From positions 2,430,001 to 2,462,000 of the forward strand of contig NZ_CP030918.1 in the NCBI RefSeq assembly GCF_003324675.1: 32,000 bases of DNA. The letters run 5' to 3'. The position numbers and the translations under genes were made by a program. A model generated the notes under the pieces. The model saw only the letters and a list, made by a program, of their open reading frames with translations. It was not told the DNA's origin and made no database searches. Of this stretch, positions 6,828-12,927 are shown piece after piece. This DNA comes from Paracoccus suum (lineage in GTDB: Bacteria; Pseudomonadota; Alphaproteobacteria; Rhodobacterales; Rhodobacteraceae). Numbering within the stretch: position 1 is the stretch's first letter; each line of letters starts with the position of its first letter.

Positions 6828-9104
6828 ATGCTGAAGTTGCTGACATCAGCCGCCGGGCTGGCCATTTTCGCAACCGGGGCGCTGGCCAATGAAAGCGTAA
6901 TGGCCCTGACCAAGGACGACACCCAGTGGGCGTTGCAGACCAAGGACTACGCCAACACGCGCTATTCGACGCTGAAGCAGATCACCAAGGAAAACGTCGG
7001 TGACATGCGCGTGGCATGGAGCTTTTCGACGGGCGTGCTGCGCGGCCACGAAGGTGGACCGCTGGTCGTGGACGGCATCATGTATGTCCACACGCCGTTT
7101 CCGAACAACATCTTTGCGCTTGATCTGAACGACAACGGAAAGATCCTGTGGTCCTACAAGCCGCAGCAAAACCCCGAGACGATCGCGGTCATGTGCTGCG
7201 ATACCATCTATCGCGGCCTCGCCTATGCCGACGGCACGGTATTCCTGGCGCAGGCCGACACGACGCTGGTCGCGCTGGACGCAAAGTCGGGCGCGGTAAA
7301 ATGGTCGGTCAAGACCGGTGATCCGGCGATTGGCGAGACCAGCACCGCAACCGTGACCCCGGTCAAGGACAAGCTCCTGGTGGGGATCTCGGGCGGCGAA
7401 TATGGCGTGCGCGGTCGCATGACCGCCTACAACATCAGCGACGGCAGCGTCGCGTGGCAGGCTTGGTCCACCGGACCCGATGCCGATATGCTGGTCGATC
7501 CCGAAAAGACCATGGTGCTGGGCAAGCCGATTGGCGCCGACAGTTCGCTGAAGAGCTGGGAAGGCGATCAGTGGAAGATTGGCGGCGGCACCACCTGGGG
7601 CTGGACCTCGTATGACCCGGATCTGAACCTGGTCTATTACGGAACCGGCAACCCCTCGACCTGGAACCCGTCGCAGCGTCCGGGTGACAACAAGTGGTCG
7701 ATGACGATCATGGCCCGCGATGCCGACACCGGCATGGCGAAGTGGTTCTACCAGATGACGCCCCACGACGAGTGGGACTATGACGGCATCAACGAGATGA
7801 TCCTGACCGACCAGCAGTTCGACGGCAAGGATCGCAAGCTGCTCACGCACTTTGACCGGAACGGCTTTGGCTACACGCTCGACCGCGAAACGGGTGAGCT
7901 GTTGGTCGCTAAGAAGTACGACCCGGCCGTCAACTGGGCGACGGAAGTCGTCATGGACCCGTCGAGCGACCAGTATGGCCGCCCGCAGGTCGTGTCCAAA
8001 TACTCGACCGAGCAGAACGGCGAGGATACCAACTCTCAGGGTATCTGCCCGACCGCCCTCGGCAGCAAGGACCAGCAGCCGGCGGCCTACTCGCCCGAGA
8101 CGCAGCTGTTCTACGTGCCGACCAACCACGTCTGCATGGACTACGAGCCGTTCCGCGTCAGCTACACCGCCGGCCAGCCCTACATTGGGGCCACGCTGTC
8201 GATGTATCCCGCGCCCGGCAGCCATGGCGGGATGGGTAACTTCATCGCCTGGGACAACATCAAGGGCGAGATCAAGTGGACCATCCCCGAGACCTTCTCG
8301 GTCTGGTCCGGCGCCTTGGCGACCGCCGGCGGCGTGGTGTTTTACGGCACGCTCGAGGGCTATCTGAAGGCGATCGACGCCGAAACGGGCGAGGAGCTTT
8401 ACAGCTTCAAGACCCCGTCCGGGATCATCGGCAACGTGATGACCTACGAGTCCGGCGGCCAGCAGTATGTCGCCGTCCTGACGGGCGTCGGGGGCTGGGC
8501 GGGCATCGGTCTTGCGGCGGGTCTGACCGACCCGACTGCAGGTCTTGGCGCGGTTGGCGGCTATGCGTCGCTGTCGCAATACACCAATCTCGGCGGTCAG
8601 CTGACCGTGTTTGAAGTGCCGGGCACCGGCACGGGCGAGGCCAAGGTAGCCCAGGGCACCAAGCCGATCCCGGGTCCCGTTCCGATGGACAACAGCGGGA
8701 CCATGGCCCCGGCGCCAGCCCCGGCCGCGGCACCTGCCGCCCCGGCAGCGGACGGGGCAGCTCCCGCCGCTGATGCCGCACCGGCTGCGCCAGCAGCAGG
8801 TGCTGCGCCACCCGCAGCGCCAGCGGCGGACGCGGCGGCGCCGGCGGCCCCTGCGACCCCTGCCGCGGACGCTGCAGCGCCCGCGGCGGCAGCGCCCGCG
8901 GCTGGCACGGAGGCAGCGCCTGCCACCGACGCCAATGCCGAGGCGGGAGCCGCAACCGCTCAGCCCGGCACGGCCTCGAGCAGCGCGCAGGAGACCGGCA
9001 CCGTCTCGCCGAACGAGGCGCCGGCTGCCGCTCCGGCGGATGCCGCCGCTCCGGCTGCGGGCGCGGCGCCGGCACCTGCGCCCGCACCCGCGCCCTCCAA
9101 CTGA
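6828..9104 (+). CDS. xoxF: PQQ-dependent, lanthanide-type methanol/ethanol dehydrogenase XoxF with a C-terminal Ala/Pro-rich extension
   Basis: Signal peptide [22 protein letters not shown]. Vicinal Cys-Cys in VMCCD (7194-7199). DEWDYDG (DYDG = 7776-7787) carries the extra Asp diagnostic of lanthanide-dependent XoxF, where Ca-dependent MxaF has Ala. GGAGGG SD lies upstream. The canonical catalytic domain ends near residue 599 ([11 protein letters not shown], about 8624). Residues 600-758 form a low-complexity tail that runs to the TGA at 9102-9104. Confidence 0.9.
8703..9101 (+). repeat. low-complexity GCN/CCN imperfect tandem repeats encoding the Ala/Pro-rich XoxF tail
   Basis: Translation: [68 protein letters not shown]...[25 protein letters not shown]. 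By eye, synonymous codons (GCA/GCT, CCA/CCT) are more mixed here than in the catalytic part. Confidence 0.75.
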
Positions 9105-9121
9105 TCTGACCAACATGACGC

Positions 9122-9151
9122 GCGCGTCCCGAGGGTAACCTCGGGGCGCGC
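9122..9151 (+). promoter_or_regulatory. intercistronic stem-loop between xoxF and xoxG
   Basis: A 13-bp stem pairs GCGCGTCCCGAGG (9122-9134) with CCTCGGGGCGCGC (9139-9151), including one G-U pair. The loop GTAA is GNRA-type. No U-tract follows. Confidence 0.5.
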
Positions 9152-9192
9152 AGCCTCCACCGCGAAGCCAGCCGCGAAGAAAGAGATCATCC

Positions 9193-10017
9193 ATGACCCT
9201 GCGCGACATGCACGCCTGCCACGCGACCCAGAACAACTTCAGCCGGCCCGCCGGTCTTGGCCTGTCGCTGGCAGCGGCCTTGGCCCTCGCGGCCTCGCCA
9301 TTCCCGGCTGCGGCGCAGACCGCACCCGTTACGCCCGCCGCGCCCGCTGAAGCGACGCCGGCGCCTGCTCCCGCCGCTTCGTCTGACGCGATGCCGGCGC
9401 CTGCTGCTGCGCCCACTCCGGCAGCCCCAGCTGCTCCGGCCCCTGCCGCATCTCCGGCCGGCCAAGCTGCCGCACCCGCCGCCGCGGCCGCACCTGCGGC
9501 CGCCGCCCCGGCAGCAACCGCAGCGGCACCTGCCGAGCCGGTGCCTGAGGCAGCACCGACCGCGGCTGGCTCCGGCCCCGATACCACCGGCCCCACCGAG
9601 CAGAACAACGGCATCTGGTACACCGCCGAAGGCAATCCCACCTACAAGATCGCCGATGACGGCACGCTCGATTACGGCACCTTCGCCGGCTACATCCGCT
9701 ACACTGCCGAGTGCATGACCTGCCACGGCCCGGATGGAATGGGCTCGTCCTATGCCCCGCCGCTGAAGGACGTGGTCATGCGGATCACCTATTCCGACTT
9801 CACCGGCATCGTCGCTGGTGGCATGCAGGATGTCAGCGCTGCGCAAACCTTGGTGATGCCGTCGTTCGGCAACAATAACAACGTGATGTGCTACCTGGAC
9901 GGCATCTACGCCTATCTGCTTGCACGCGGTGAGGGCAAGGTCGACCGCGGTCGCCCGCCGAAGAAAGAACCGAAATCGGATGCCTTCAAGGCAGCCGAAG
10001 ACGAGTGCATGGGGTGA
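9193..10017 (+). CDS. xoxG: cytochrome c (c-553i / XoxG type), predicted electron acceptor of XoxF
   Basis: Signal peptide ...GLGLSLAAALALAASPFPAAA/QT. Single haem motif CMTCH (9712-9726) within YIRYTAECMTCHGPDGMGSSYAPPLKD. It sits directly after xoxF and before xoxJ. The start may alternatively be ATG 9208. Residues ~42-135 form an Ala/Pro-rich linker. Confidence 0.88.
   Translation: MTLRDMHACHATQNNFSRPAGLGLSLAAALALAASPFPAAAQTAPVTPAAPAEATPAPAPAASSDAMPAPAAAPTPAAPAAPAPAASPAGQAAAPAAAAAPAAAAPAATAAAPAEPVPEAAPTAAGSGPDTTGPTEQNNGIWYTAEGNPTYKIADDGTLDYGTFAGYIRYTAECMTCHGPDGMGSSYAPPLKDVVMRITYSDFTGIVAGGMQDVSAAQTLVMPSFGNNNNVMCYLDGIYAYLLARGEGKVDRGRPPKKEPKSDAFKAAEDECMG
9316..9597 (+). repeat. low-complexity region encoding the Ala/Pro-rich N-terminal linker of XoxG
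   Basis: Translation: [93 protein letters not shown]. The composition matches the XoxF tail 200-900 nt upstream. Confidence 0.75.
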
Positions 10018-10970
10018 TGCACATCGCCCGGACCATTGCGGCCGGCCTTACATTGGCGGTCATTCTGGCTGGCTCCGGATGGGCGCAAACCGCGCCCGGC
10101 AACGCCCCAGTCGTGGTGCCGGGCCCAGCGGCTGACGGGGCACCCCCGGAGGCACAGCAGCCGGGCGGCGCACCCATGCCCGGCGCGCCGTTCCCGGGCG
10201 CTGCGACGGCGCCGGCGGCGGAACTCGCTTCGCAAACATCCTTCCGGGTTTGTGCCGATCCGGCCAATGCGCCGATGTCGGTCAAGGACGGCAGCGGCTT
10301 CGAGAACCGCATTGCGGAACTGTTCGCGGCCAAGCTCGACCGGCCGCTGGAATACACCTGGTTCCCGCAGACGACCGGCTTCATCCGCAAGACCCTGCGC
10401 GCTTTCGCCTGCGATGTCGTCATCGGCTATGCCCAGGGCGACCAGCTGGTGCAGAACACCAACCATTACTACAGCTCGGCCTATGTGATCGTGACGCTGG
10501 CCGGGGGACCGCTCGACGGGGTCGACCGCATCAGCGATCCGCGCCTGCTGGGACACCGCATCGGGGTGACCGAGTCCTCGCCCCCGGTCAATCACATGTT
10601 GCACGCCGGGTTGCTGAAGACTGCAGCCTATTATCCACTGTTCGTCGATCGGCGCGTGCAGGACCCGGCCGGCGACATGCTGCGCGATCTGCACGCAGGC
10701 AAGATCGATGCCGCCATCCTCTGGGGGCCGATTGGCGGGCCGGCCGTCAAGGCCGATCCCAGCCTGACGATGGCGCCGCTGCTGCATGAGGTGGGCCAGC
10801 CCAAGTTGGTCTATCGCATCACCATGGGCGTCCGGCCGGCGGACCAGGCGTGGAAACGCCAGTTGAACAGCCTCATCCGCCGTAACCAGGCCGAGATCGA
10901 CGCAATCCTGCGCGATTCTGGCGTGCCACTGATTGATGACGAAGGCACCGCGCTCAAGCCTCCGGCATGA
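10017..10970 (+). CDS. xoxJ: XoxJ/MoxJ-type periplasmic binding protein (quinoprotein dehydrogenase-associated substrate-binding protein)
   Basis: ATG 10017 overlaps the xoxG stop (TGATG); ATG 10005 is an alternative. Signal peptide MHIARTIAAGLTLAVILAGSGWA/QT, then a Pro/Ala-rich linker, then FRVCADPANAPMSVKDGSGFENRIAELFA...GKIDAAILWGP, typical of MoxJ-like type 2 binding proteins. Confidence 0.85.
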   Translation: MHIARTIAAGLTLAVILAGSGWAQTAPGNAPVVVPGPAADGAPPEAQQPGGAPMPGAPFPGAATAPAAELASQTSFRVCADPANAPMSVKDGSGFENRIAELFAAKLDRPLEYTWFPQTTGFIRKTLRAFACDVVIGYAQGDQLVQNTNHYYSSAYVIVTLAGGPLDGVDRISDPRLLGHRIGVTESSPPVNHMLHAGLLKTAAYYPLFVDRRVQDPAGDMLRDLHAGKIDAAILWGPIGGPAVKADPSLTMAPLLHEVGQPKLVYRITMGVRPADQAWKRQLNSLIRRNQAEIDAILRDSGVPLIDDEGTALKPPA

Positions 10971-11503: not shown

Positions 11504-11586
11504 TCGCTTAGGACCAAGGTCTTAGCTCACAAAGCTGGCAAGCTTGCCGGCCATCGGTCTAACATCAAGGACGGGGAGGGGTGACG

Positions 11587-12927
11587 ATGGGAAAGGGGAC
11601 CGGCGCAGCACTTTTGGCAATCCATGCCATGACGTTGACCGGTGCCGCGATCCCCGCCAGTGCGCCCGTCAGCCCGCCCTCGACTGCCCAACCCGCGAGC
11701 CCTCTGGCCGCTCCTGTGGCTCCTGCGGCAGCCTCTCAGCCCGCCAACCCTGCCGGGGCGCCCGCAGCCGCAGCTTCGTCAAACGCGAAGCTGCCCACTG
11801 CGGGCGAAATACGCGCCGGGGTGCTTAGGGTCGACACGCCAACGCTGCCGCCGGCATCGCGGCTCGATCTGCCTCCACCCGACCTCGGACTGGTTGGGGC
11901 AGAGCTTGCCACCCGCGACAACGCGACCACGGGCGGTTTCCTGGGTCAGACCTTCACAACCGAAACCGCGACCGCGACCCCGCAGGATGCGGTCGCGAAG
12001 TTGGAACGCCTGATCGACGGCGGCAGCGCGTTCATCGTGGTCATGGCGGACGACGCACAGACGCTGGCGCTCGCCGATGCGGCGCGCGCCAAGGCTGGGG
12101 ACAAGGTGTTGATCCTGAACGCGCTGGCCGAGGGGGACGACCTGCGCGGGGACGACTGCCGCGCGAACGTCATCCATGTCGCCGCCTCGCGCGCGATGAA
12201 ATCCGATGCGCTGGCGCAGTTCCTGATGTGGAAGCGATGGGGCAAGTGGTACCTGGTGGAAGGCAGCCACCCGCGGGACAAAGCCCTCGCCGCCGCCTAT
12301 GCCCGCGCCGCGACCAAGTTCGGCGCCAAGCTGGTCGAAACGCGCGAATTTACCGACACCGGCGGGGGCCGCCGGACCGATACCGGCTATGTCCAGATCC
12401 AGCAGCAGATGCCGGTTTTTACGCAGCGCGCACCCGGCCATGACGTACTGGTCGCGGCGGACGAGGCGGGCACCTTCGCGCCCTATCTGCCCTACCAGAC
12501 GTGGGACGCGCGCCCGGTCGTCGGTTCGGCCGGGCTGACGCCGGTCACCTGGCACCCCGCGGCAGAGGCTTGGGGCGGGACGCAACTGCAAACCCGGTTC
12601 GAGGCGCTGGCCCACCGGCCGATGCGCGAGGCGGATTACCAGGTGTGGCTGGCGCTGCGCCTGCTGGGCGAGGCCGCAAGCCGCGCGCCCAGCACGGATT
12701 TCGCGGCGCTGCGCGATCGCCTGTTGGGCCCGCAGTTCGAGGTCGGCGCCTTCAAGGGTCAAAAGCTGACGATCCGTGACTGGGACCATCAACTGCGCCA
12801 GCCGATCCTGTTGGCGACGCCCGCCATCGTTGCCTCGGTCTCGCCGCAGGACCAGTATCTGCACCAGACCAGTGCGCTCGACACGCTCGGGATCGACCGC
12901 CCCGAATCCACCTGCAAGCTGAAGTGA
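11587..12927 (+). CDS. periplasmic substrate-binding protein, type 1 (LivK-like), of the PQQ-dehydrogenase-associated ABC system
   Basis: GGAGG ends 7 nt before ATG 11587; the track start is GTG 11581. The N-terminal hydrophobic region is followed by an Ala/Pro/Ser-rich linker (PASAPVSPPSTAQPASPLAAPVAPAAASQPANPAGAPAAAAS). The binding-protein body follows (AFIVVMADDAQTLALADAARAKAGDKVLILNALAEGDDLRGDDC...WKRWGKWYLVEGSHPRDKALAAAY). Confidence 0.8.
   Translation: MGKGTGAALLAIHAMTLTGAAIPASAPVSPPSTAQPASPLAAPVAPAAASQPANPAGAPAAAASSNAKLPTAGEIRAGVLRVDTPTLPPASRLDLPPPDLGLVGAELATRDNATTGGFLGQTFTTETATATPQDAVAKLERLIDGGSAFIVVMADDAQTLALADAARAKAGDKVLILNALAEGDDLRGDDCRANVIHVAASRAMKSDALAQFLMWKRWGKWYLVEGSHPRDKALAAAYARAATKFGAKLVETREFTDTGGGRRTDTGYVQIQQQMPVFTQRAPGHDVLVAADEAGTFAPYLPYQTWDARPVVGSAGLTPVTWHPAAEAWGGTQLQTRFEALAHRPMREADYQVWLALRLLGEAASRAPSTDFAALRDRLLGPQFEVGAFKGQKLTIRDWDHQLRQPILLATPAIVASVSPQDQYLHQTSALDTLGIDRPESTCKLK

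Follow-up and report, generated by a model that had tools for sequence, protein, structure and literature searches.

A predicted disordered, acidic Ala/Pro-rich C-terminal tail with a conserved terminal peptide on the XoxF methanol dehydrogenase of Paracoccus suum

Introduction

The DNA analysed here, called the window, is a stretch of 32,000 nucleotides of the genome of Paracoccus suum (NCBI RefSeq assembly GCF_003324675.1, contig NZ_CP030918.1, positions 2,430,001 to 2,462,000 of the forward strand), and all positions given below are those of the window. In the open reading frame (ORF) listing of the window, xoxF, the gene of a pyrroloquinoline quinone (PQQ)-dependent methanol dehydrogenase, is a single frame at 6828..9104 (+) that encodes 758 amino acids. 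A first-pass annotation, made from the letters of the window, had noticed that this frame runs on for 159 codons beyond the catalytic propeller, and had read the continuation as a flexible periplasmic tether or spacer. Here we analyse this extension. Comparison with relatives and structure prediction suggest that 8625-9101 is probably a genuine translated part of XoxF, namely a disordered, net-acidic Ala/Pro-rich tail in which a conserved terminal peptide would be the functional element.

Results

The catalytic part of XoxF is complete at residue 599

The XoxF chain starts with a predicted signal peptide (residues 1-20; 6828..6887, +), assigned from its sequence and from alignment with the leader of M. 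extorquens XoxF1, with an inferred cleavage site. It is followed by the catalytic eight-bladed PQQ propeller of the XoxF5 type (residues 21-599; 6888..8624, +), delimited with TIGR03075, Pfam PQQ and the alignment with 6oc5. The NCBIfam model TIGR03075 covers residues 16-556 with 747 bits (cut-off 480.05), and the Pfam PQQ model (PF01011) matches with E = 2e-59. The best solved relative, XoxF1 of M. extorquens (6oc5, 601 residues), aligns with residues 3-599 of the query with 1051 bits and stops there, which bears out the first-pass estimate that the propeller ends at about residue 599. Residue 599 is a Gly, and the tail therefore starts at nucleotide 8625. In the structure of XoxF1 the mature chain was modelled from Asn22 to the penultimate residue, Asn600 (bioRxiv 10.1101/2020.02.25.964783), so that the known fold is complete at residue 599 of the window protein. 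The paper on the Nd-XoxF1 structure is silent on the C-terminus; an XoxF1 construct with a protease site and a His tag, presumably placed at the C-terminus, yielded enzyme (bioRxiv 10.1101/2020.02.25.964783).

Alignment A2 of the relatives shows no variation in the vicinal Cys-Cys (MCCD) or in the WDYDG motif (D317, D319). The lanthanide Asp signature, in which a further lanthanide-coordinating Asp stands two positions beyond the catalytic one (D-x-D and not D-x-A), is present, since WDYDG of the window stands opposite WDFDG of XoxF1 in 6oc5, and the closest relatives by DNA match are annotated as XoxF5. The catalytic part thus shows each XoxF5 feature that can be read from a sequence (family score, D-x-D, and association with xoxG and xoxJ), and by these features the propeller is a complete XoxF5-type lanthanide/PQQ methanol dehydrogenase. 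It has the signal peptide, the Cys-Cys, the D-Y-D motif and the xoxF-xoxG-xoxJ gene order in common with XoxF1 of M. extorquens AM1 (6oc5/6oc6); the two proteins differ in that XoxF1 is 601 residues long and folded to its penultimate residue, whereas the window XoxF adds 159 residues predicted to be disordered.

The extension carries a coding signal in the xoxF frame

The tail comprises 159 codons (8625-9101) and is closed by the TGA stop codon of xoxF (9102..9104, +), the last sense codon finishing at 9101. It contains 72 Ala, 31 Pro, 12 Gly, 11 Thr, 7 Asp, 6 Ser and 5 Glu, the rest being 4 Asn, 3 Val, 3 Gln, 2 Lys, 2 Met and 1 Ile. Ala and Pro thus make up 65% of the tail, 12 residues are acidic, and Arg (0), Leu, Cys, Trp, Phe, Tyr and His are absent from all 159 positions. 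The length and the Ala/Pro richness of the continuation were as first described, and every string quoted in that description was found in the sequence.

The tail region has 77-84% G+C. ORF length was rejected as coding evidence, since 41% of dinucleotide-preserving shuffles of 8625-9101 were free of stops; two of the five other frames are stop-free too. Position-specific G+C was dropped as a coding test, being uninformative here because GCN and CCN codons force a high G+C at codon positions 1 and 2. In its place we used a frame-composition test with 1000 shuffles of 8625-9101. Against an expectation of 30.0 ± 4.4 Arg codons (minimum 16), the tail frame has none, and it holds 103 Ala and Pro codons where 57 ± 5 were expected (maximum 74). 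A strong 3-nt periodicity was also observed, with G at codon position 1 in 99/159 codons and C at position 2 in 117/159. The remaining frames of the same DNA translate to Arg-rich nonsense, as out-of-frame G+C-rich DNA does. An antisense stop-free ORF of 931 residues, 6846-9641 (-), spans all of xoxF and part of xoxG; its translation is Arg/Gly/Ala-rich, as is usual for artefactual frames in high-G+C DNA and unlike the product of a real gene.

No domain model of Pfam or NCBIfam was matched beyond residue 556 of XoxF, an Rfam scan of the window found no family, and neither a sigma-70-like promoter nor an intrinsic terminator was found in 8400-9400. These results give no support to an RNA or regulatory element hidden in the region.

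Tails are present in most Paracoccus XoxF proteins

The comparison with orthologues that the first-pass annotation had proposed was carried out on the 120 best database matches to XoxF; the named ones are all from Paracoccus, with 73-84% identity over the aligned region and lengths from 597 to 778 residues. Tails were delimited by anchoring on the conserved …GGQLTVF-x-x-P-x end. In 93 of the 120 matches a tail of at least 5 residues (5-139) was found, so that the range among these matches is 0-139 residues. The Paracoccus tails share one attachment point, after …VFELPG. Tail-bearing examples are the proteins of P. contaminans (CP020612; 667 residues) and P. tegillarcae (670 residues) and metagenomic proteins of 682-739 residues. 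The tail of the window, with 159 residues against at most 139 in its relatives, is the longest seen. As far as these matches go, it is the longest of a continuum present in most Paracoccus XoxF proteins and is not peculiar to one gene, a point on which the first description had laid a different emphasis.

The composition of the tails is consistent from one to the next. Net acidic charge was found in 53 of 55 distinct tails, and their pooled composition is Ala 39%, Pro 13%, Gly 10%, Glu 9%, Thr 8%, Ser 6% and Asp 6%, basic residues being scarce (Lys 1.3%, Arg 0.1%). Such a pooled composition shows an apparent exclusion of basic and hydrophobic residues from the tails. When the cores were grouped by average-linkage clustering on identity, which is a rough proxy for phylogeny, the type of tail was seen to track the catalytic-core clusters (e.g., tails of the …APAEGGTSG, …AEDAAGEDASSG and APSGG types, and long tails). 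The core of the window XoxF is ~18-21% divergent from the other Paracoccus XoxF cores.

Short Ser/acidic XoxF tails that have arisen independently occur in Aurantimonas, Fulvimarina, Aureimonas and a few metagenome-assembled genomes (MAGs). Matches to the tail that reached query residues 705-750 in P. limosus, Hansschlegelia and Methylobacterium were discarded as low-complexity noise, often on the opposite strand; the XoxF proteins of these organisms stop at the canonical position. The first-pass annotation had considered that close relatives might have a stop at that position followed by a non-coding repeat. The canonical-stop relatives have instead an ordinary spacer of ~100-130 nt with a hairpin, and no non-coding repeat. 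In the literature we found no paper on a C-terminal extension of XoxF, nor on a proline-rich Paracoccus XoxF, and the databases name the tailed proteins merely as methanol/ethanol family PQQ-dependent dehydrogenases. The tails are largely restricted to Paracoccus and are undescribed in the literature found.

Some contigs of relatives are defective in this region. The low-coverage contig L090 (protein P0009, 778 residues) has a frameshift where the tail ends (…KPSKSARAKR…), and the low-coverage metagenome contigs L086, L088 and L089 are fragmented or chimeric within repeats; L089 fuses a response-regulator fragment to a Met-rich repeat. These defects show that such tails break short-read assemblies.

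The tail has a segmented architecture and is predicted to be disordered

Adjacent to the propeller lies a non-repetitive junction of 27 residues (residues 600-626; 8625..8705, +), assigned from sequence and from a predicted local distance difference test (pLDDT) value <50. It has no counterpart in the tails of relatives, which start E/D-G/A... An acidic Ala/Pro-rich spacer built of degenerate PAAD(A/G)A units follows (residues 627-708; 8706..8951, +), recognised by composition, repeats and disorder. Next comes the conserved terminal peptide module (residues 709-732; 8952..9023, +), defined with alignment A1, whose GTVSPNE core is at 8997-9017. The last segment (9024..9101, +), delimited by comparison with relatives, is a second Ala/Pro-rich insertion (residues 733-755) followed by the conserved C-terminal PSN (9093-9101); the gap from NEAP/NEG to (K)PSN is 5-10 residues in relatives and 23 in the window. 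The window tail therefore shares with other Paracoccus XoxF tails the attachment after …VFELPG, the acidic Ala/Pro/Gly/Ser/Thr make-up and, in one cluster, GTVSPNE…PSN, and differs from them by its unique 27-residue junction and its 23-residue Ala/Pro insertion. In a tblastn comparison with the tails of two of these relatives, L082 and L083, the window tail gave E = 4e-26 and 7e-31, respectively.

A structure was predicted with AlphaFold2 on a 34-sequence alignment that included tail-bearing relatives. Residues 603-758 had a pLDDT of ~30 and no secondary structure, in agreement with the flexibility first proposed for the tail; confidence in the core was only modest because the alignment was shallow. 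The tail is predicted to be intrinsically disordered and to stand apart from the catalytic fold.

Tail length changes by in-frame gain and loss of repeat units

Tandem repeats in the window tail are weak (periods of 21 and 15 nt at 8814-8907 and of 12 nt at 9066-9095, with scores of 46-61), and those in the L083 tail are stronger, with 21-, 42- and 75-nt arrays and scores of up to 187 (Tandem Repeats Finder). The repeat unit is an AAPAADA-like heptad (21 nt, 7 residues). Inside one near-identical population, tails of 82, 106, 107 and 122 residues were found. The L082 and L083 cores are 99% identical, and between their tails there are in-frame indels of 3 and 45 nt, together with 9 synonymous and 3 non-synonymous codon changes; the cores gave 12:4, which is an equal ratio. 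The periods are thus divisible by three and the length is polymorphic among close relatives, as is characteristic of a slippage-prone coding repeat. The close relatives show that tails lengthen and shorten by what appears to be in-frame gain and loss of degenerate 21-nt units, and that the tail, an extension specific to its lineage and predicted to be disordered, is prone to slippage. The earlier suspicion of a hypervariable, recombination-prone segment held in so far as tails range from 0 to 159 residues across Paracoccus, with the in-frame indels lying in 21-nt arrays.

A terminal peptide is conserved in one class of tails

The most informative part of the window tail is a terminal peptide that the first-pass annotation had not picked out and that the tail has in common with one cluster of XoxF proteins, into which all module-bearing tails fall. 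The members of this cluster are P. contaminans (L081, complete genome CP020612), a 671-residue MAG-derived protein and a metagenomic population with proteins of 682-722 residues. The terminal consensus, …DPxAPAxGxG(A/G)xxxxE(T/V)GTVSPNE…(K)PSN (alignment A1), extends over ~25-35 residues. Its GTVSPNE part is identical at the protein level in five loci (the window, L081, L082, L083 and L084), and the codons for it vary only synonymously (GTC/GTT/GTG, CCG/CCC). The peptide is kept where the cores are ~20% divergent and the spacers cannot be aligned. This pattern of changes shows apparent purifying selection on the terminal peptide within the tail class of the window. The C-terminal dipeptide SN occurs in 20 of the 55 distinct tails, and some module variants carry Pro in place of Ser (TGAVPMEPE, TGTIPMEPG). 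When the degenerate DNA pattern for E[V/T]GTVSPNE[A/G] was searched in the metagenome collection, five matches were obtained, namely four XoxF tails and one chance match.

In L084 (193-2412, protein P0100) the spacer consists of ~100 residues of Met-rich repeats, (MSGMSGMDGM)n, and the terminal GTVSPNE…KPSN is retained; Met-rich repeats are also found in L088 and L089. The repeats of L084 are similar to the copper-binding Met-rich stretches found in periplasmic copper-resistance proteins.

A conserved hairpin separates xoxF from xoxG

Just 3′ of the xoxF stop codon lies a G+C-rich intergenic hairpin (9117..9157, +) with the core GCGCGCGUCCCGAGG-GUAA-CCUCGGGGCGCGC and no U-tract, identified by folding and conservation. 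It has a folding energy of -43.5 kcal/mol (z = -4.55), and none of 200 shuffles folded equally well. Equivalent hairpins are found at the same place across Paracoccus loci, independently of tail length. The hairpin fails the intrinsic-terminator pattern, and it may stabilise the mRNA or direct its processing and in this way set the ratio of xoxF to xoxG expression. Plasmid-borne xoxF5 genes match the DNA of the window no further than positions 8611-8622, where each of these matches stops.

Downstream of the hairpin lies xoxG (9193..10017, +), which encodes a c-type cytochrome of 274 residues matched by TIGR03874 (198 bits) over residues 136-273 only. If the tail were untranslated, the spacer between xoxF and xoxG, whose start is at 9193, would measure 568 nt; the first estimate had been about 570 nt. 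Then follow xoxJ (10005-10970), for a MoxJ-like binding protein with a periplasmic-binding-protein fold (TIGR03871, 285 bits), the gene of a CXXCW protein, and that of a PQQ-system ABC binding protein (11581-12927). Upstream of xoxF there are genes for an S-formylglutathione hydrolase and a class III-like alcohol dehydrogenase. The xoxG and xoxJ frames overlap by 13 nt (10005-10017) and xoxJ and the CXXCW gene by 4 nt (10967-10970), which suggests translational coupling in both pairs. Unlike these overlapping downstream genes, xoxF is set apart from xoxG by a spacer that contains the hairpin. In P. contaminans (L081, 7107-8004), genes for a sulfotransferase and a family 92 glycosyltransferase lie directly downstream of the xox cluster on the opposite strand; they may be noteworthy for the idea of tail glycosylation considered below, or may be there by coincidence.

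Ala/Pro-rich segments occur on other exported proteins of the cluster

The similar linker that had been noticed on XoxG was found again, as an Ala/Pro-rich N-terminal segment of ~94 residues (residues 42-135; 9316-9597, +) between the signal peptide and the haem domain. In XoxJ an Ala/Pro/Gly-rich extension follows the signal peptide (residues 28-78, with the Ala/Pro-rich segment at residues 41-75), and the PQQ-system ABC binding protein has a comparable one (residues 20-76). Segments of this kind of at least 30 residues were found in the window in XoxF, XoxG, XoxJ and the PQQ-system binding protein only, all of which are exported, and in none of the cytoplasmic proteins of the window. The XoxJ orthologues of P. 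contaminans (L081), L082 and L085 are devoid of the segment, so that growth of these segments has gone further in the window organism than in its relatives.

Across loci, the length of XoxG ahead of the haem domain (signal peptide plus linker) varies from ~30 to ~227 residues, and some Paracoccus XoxG linkers hold a recurring module of their own, AGAGAAAA(T)SG. The lengths of the XoxF tail and of the XoxG pre-domain are correlated over 66 loci (Spearman 0.53, p = 4e-6), a value that is uncorrected for phylogeny and driven largely by Paracoccus. A long XoxG linker is present together with a tail-less XoxF in L028, L037 and L056.

Discussion

The homologous tails, the synonymous codon changes, the in-frame indels and the constant hairpin make the tail a heritable translated part of the xoxF gene. 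The orthologous tails keep both the frame and the terminal motif, and the conserved hairpin comes after the stop codon, as the translation assumed from the outset would have it. Of the initial interpretation as a tether or spacer, a translated, flexible and hypervariable tail with a similar linker on XoxG has stood; its emphasis needs changing, since the tail is not unique to this gene and the terminal peptide had not been picked out. We propose that the tail would be exported with the enzyme via Sec and would take no part in catalysis. The Ala/Pro stretch would serve as an extended, protease-resistant and non-sticky spacer, loosely constrained in length and sequence and subject to compositional selection only. 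The terminal peptide would be the functional element, a putative short linear motif that binds a partner or is modified, at a distance from the propeller of between tens of ångströms and a few tens of nanometres. The linkers of XoxG, XoxJ and the PQQ-system binding protein would reflect an organism-wide tendency by which the free ends of exported proteins acquire such segments through mutation and the additions are tolerated.

Several observations weigh against this interpretation. The XoxF proteins of 27 of the 120 best matches are tail-less, e.g., those of P. aminophilus and P. kondratievae, and almost all XoxF5 proteins outside Paracoccus (one genome per species) are tail-less too and stop at …LP(N/D); with tails missing from many Paracoccus and from most other XoxF5 proteins, any function of the tail must be dispensable. 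AlphaFold2 docked the terminal peptide nowhere, the propeller included. A profile search with the terminal module in 5.8 billion proteins matched only one XoxF tail fragment, P0121, low-complexity candidates having swamped the search. Only 12 codon changes were counted between the L082 and L083 tails, and misalignment of repeats could distort such small counts. The exact protein of 758 residues is absent from public collections, so that this repeat-like stretch is known from the one assembly. Finally, the tail uses Ala and Pro codons differently from the remainder of the window (chi-square p = 2e-4 for Ala), with a shift towards the rarer GCA, GCT and CCT; of the codon statistics that had been called for at the start, position-specific G+C told nothing, and this atypical usage turned out to be shared by the XoxG linker. 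The XoxG linker, which shows a shift identical in kind, is certainly translated, because it is placed between a signal peptide and a haem domain. The shift is therefore a property of low-complexity stretches and no argument against translation, and it is as expected for a young or weakly selected sequence.

Among the explanations that compete with a functional tail, it is very improbable that the extension is an artefact, i.e., that an assembly error lost a stop near 8625, or that the sequence is a repeat that codes for nothing, or is part of a different gene or of the opposite strand. Its 77-84% G+C and repeat-like character make it hard to assemble, the exact protein is on record nowhere else, contigs of relatives are frameshifted (L090) or fragmented and chimeric (L086, L088, L089), and long ORFs such as 6846..9641 run on the opposite strand. 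However, in-frame homologous tails are found in independent assemblies, including the complete genome of P. contaminans, and the terminal peptide and the hairpin that follows it recur in relatives; the alternative frames give Arg-rich nonsense, and the region has no Rfam family, promoter or terminator. A neutral origin is the main competing idea, and we regard it as possible though rather unlikely. In that case the frame would have been extended past the ancestral stop and then ballooned by slippage of GCN/CCN-rich units into a functionless by-product, which would have persisted because a disordered, acidic and non-sticky tail is harmless where the C-terminus is exposed to solvent. Stop codons are rare in a 68-80% G+C context, as the 41% of stop-free shuffles illustrate, and the extreme variation in length, the repeated absence of the tail, the repeat arrays and in-frame indels between near-identical strains, and the atypical codon usage are all features that a neutral tail would have. 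That three further exported proteins encoded in the cluster bear comparable segments likewise suggests a tendency of the whole organism more than a need specific to XoxF. If the His tag of the XoxF1 construct mentioned above does sit at the C-terminus, this end of the protein tolerates additions. What a neutral origin does not account for is that GTVSPNE…PSN is kept with synonymous changes only despite ~20% core divergence, that tail classes are stable within clades, and that the synonymous/non-synonymous ratio of the tail equals that of the core; the near-total exclusion of Arg and the consistent net negative charge of the 55 distinct tails indicate selection on the translated product.

More specific roles can be attached to the terminal peptide. 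The peptide and the polyanionic spacer could together act as a tether that recruits XoxJ or XoxG, a glycan, or hard cations including lanthanides, the cations being captured by the regularly spaced Asp/Glu; we consider this improbable. A docking peptide proper, which would bind XoxJ or XoxG so as to keep enzyme and partner together and with which the XoxG linker would have co-expanded, seems slightly less probable still. The peptide is conserved, and xoxF, xoxG and xoxJ are adjacent and, as xoxG and xoxJ also overlap, are expected to be co-expressed; the Spearman coefficient of 0.53 between tail and XoxG pre-domain lengths also fits co-expansion. This correlation is, however, phylogeny-uncorrected and comes mostly from Paracoccus, L028, L037 and L056 have long XoxG linkers and no XoxF tail, and the canonical XoxF1/XoxG pair of M. 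extorquens functions without either extension. O-glycosylation of a tail Ser (e.g., that of PSN) by a PglL-type periplasmic O-oligosaccharyltransferase is an attractive but likewise unlikely explanation. PglL-type enzymes target Ser in disordered Ala/Pro-rich periplasmic regions, with Asp/Glu nearby in Acinetobacter (PMC9239064, PMC12645811), and the C-terminal low-complexity region of Neisseria AniA is a substrate of such an enzyme (PMC9239064, PMC3643930, PMC12645811). The tail, which is predicted to be periplasmic and disordered, is Ala/Pro-rich and acidic and has a conserved Ser-Pro, resembles these substrates (signal peptide, 6 Ser, 65% Ala+Pro, pLDDT ~30). Yet these papers (PMC9239064, PMC3643930, PMC12645811) name no system in Paracoccus or any alphaproteobacterium, and no O-oligosaccharyltransferase gene was found within the 32-kb window. 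In addition, some module variants have Pro instead of Ser, so that what is conserved cannot be just a Ser that bears a glycan. AniA and the other PglL substrates are like the window XoxF in being a periplasmic redox enzyme with a disordered Ala/Pro/Ser-rich end that is dispensable for the fold; AniA differs in being a lipoprotein with a shorter tail whose glycosylation was shown experimentally; the organism of the window is not known to have glycosylation machinery or such a modification.

Other known arrangements were compared with the tail and set aside. Type II quinohaemoprotein PQQ alcohol dehydrogenases consist of a PQQ propeller, a Pro-rich linker and a C-terminal cytochrome c domain, and thus have a proline-containing linker C-terminal to the propeller in common with the window protein. 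A cytochrome domain of this type was ruled out, as the tail has no Cys or His (hence no CxxCH), no domain match and no predicted fold. A fused or read-through XoxF-XoxG was also ruled out: xoxG is in another frame, lies beyond the conserved hairpin and has its own signal peptide. C-terminal sorting signals such as LPXTG, PEP-CTERM and GlyGly-CTERM consist of a motif, then a transmembrane hydrophobic helix, and basic residues clustered at the extreme C-terminus. A known signal of this kind was discarded, since Leu, Phe, Trp, Tyr, Cys and Arg are missing from the tail and Ile (1) and Val (3) are rare in it, a composition with which neither a hydrophobic helix nor a basic cluster is possible. Lineage-specific disordered Ala/Pro/Glu-rich segments on the periplasmic side are known from the linker of Rhodobacter cytochrome c_y and the acidic domain of P. 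denitrificans cytochrome c1, and deletion of the latter reportedly had little kinetic effect. These segments join an anchor or a core to a folded domain, whereas the end of the XoxF tail is free and has a conserved peptide of its own.

XoxF is the central enzyme of lanthanide-dependent methylotrophy, and the known structural and biochemical work on it has all been done on tail-less forms of ~600 residues. The presence of acidic tails in most Paracoccus XoxF proteins raises the question of their bearing on periplasmic assembly, metalation, modification and coupling to XoxG and XoxJ. With few or no Lys and Arg, the tails escape standard tryptic proteomics, and they may affect heterologous expression and crystallisation. 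If the tether idea were true, a disordered 'fishing line' would have been fitted to XoxF in part of Paracoccus, to serve assembly, metalation or electron-transfer coupling; if the tails were neutral, they would illustrate cleanly how, in genomes of high G+C, slippage of repeats lengthens the ends of exported proteins with low-complexity sequence under compositional selection only.

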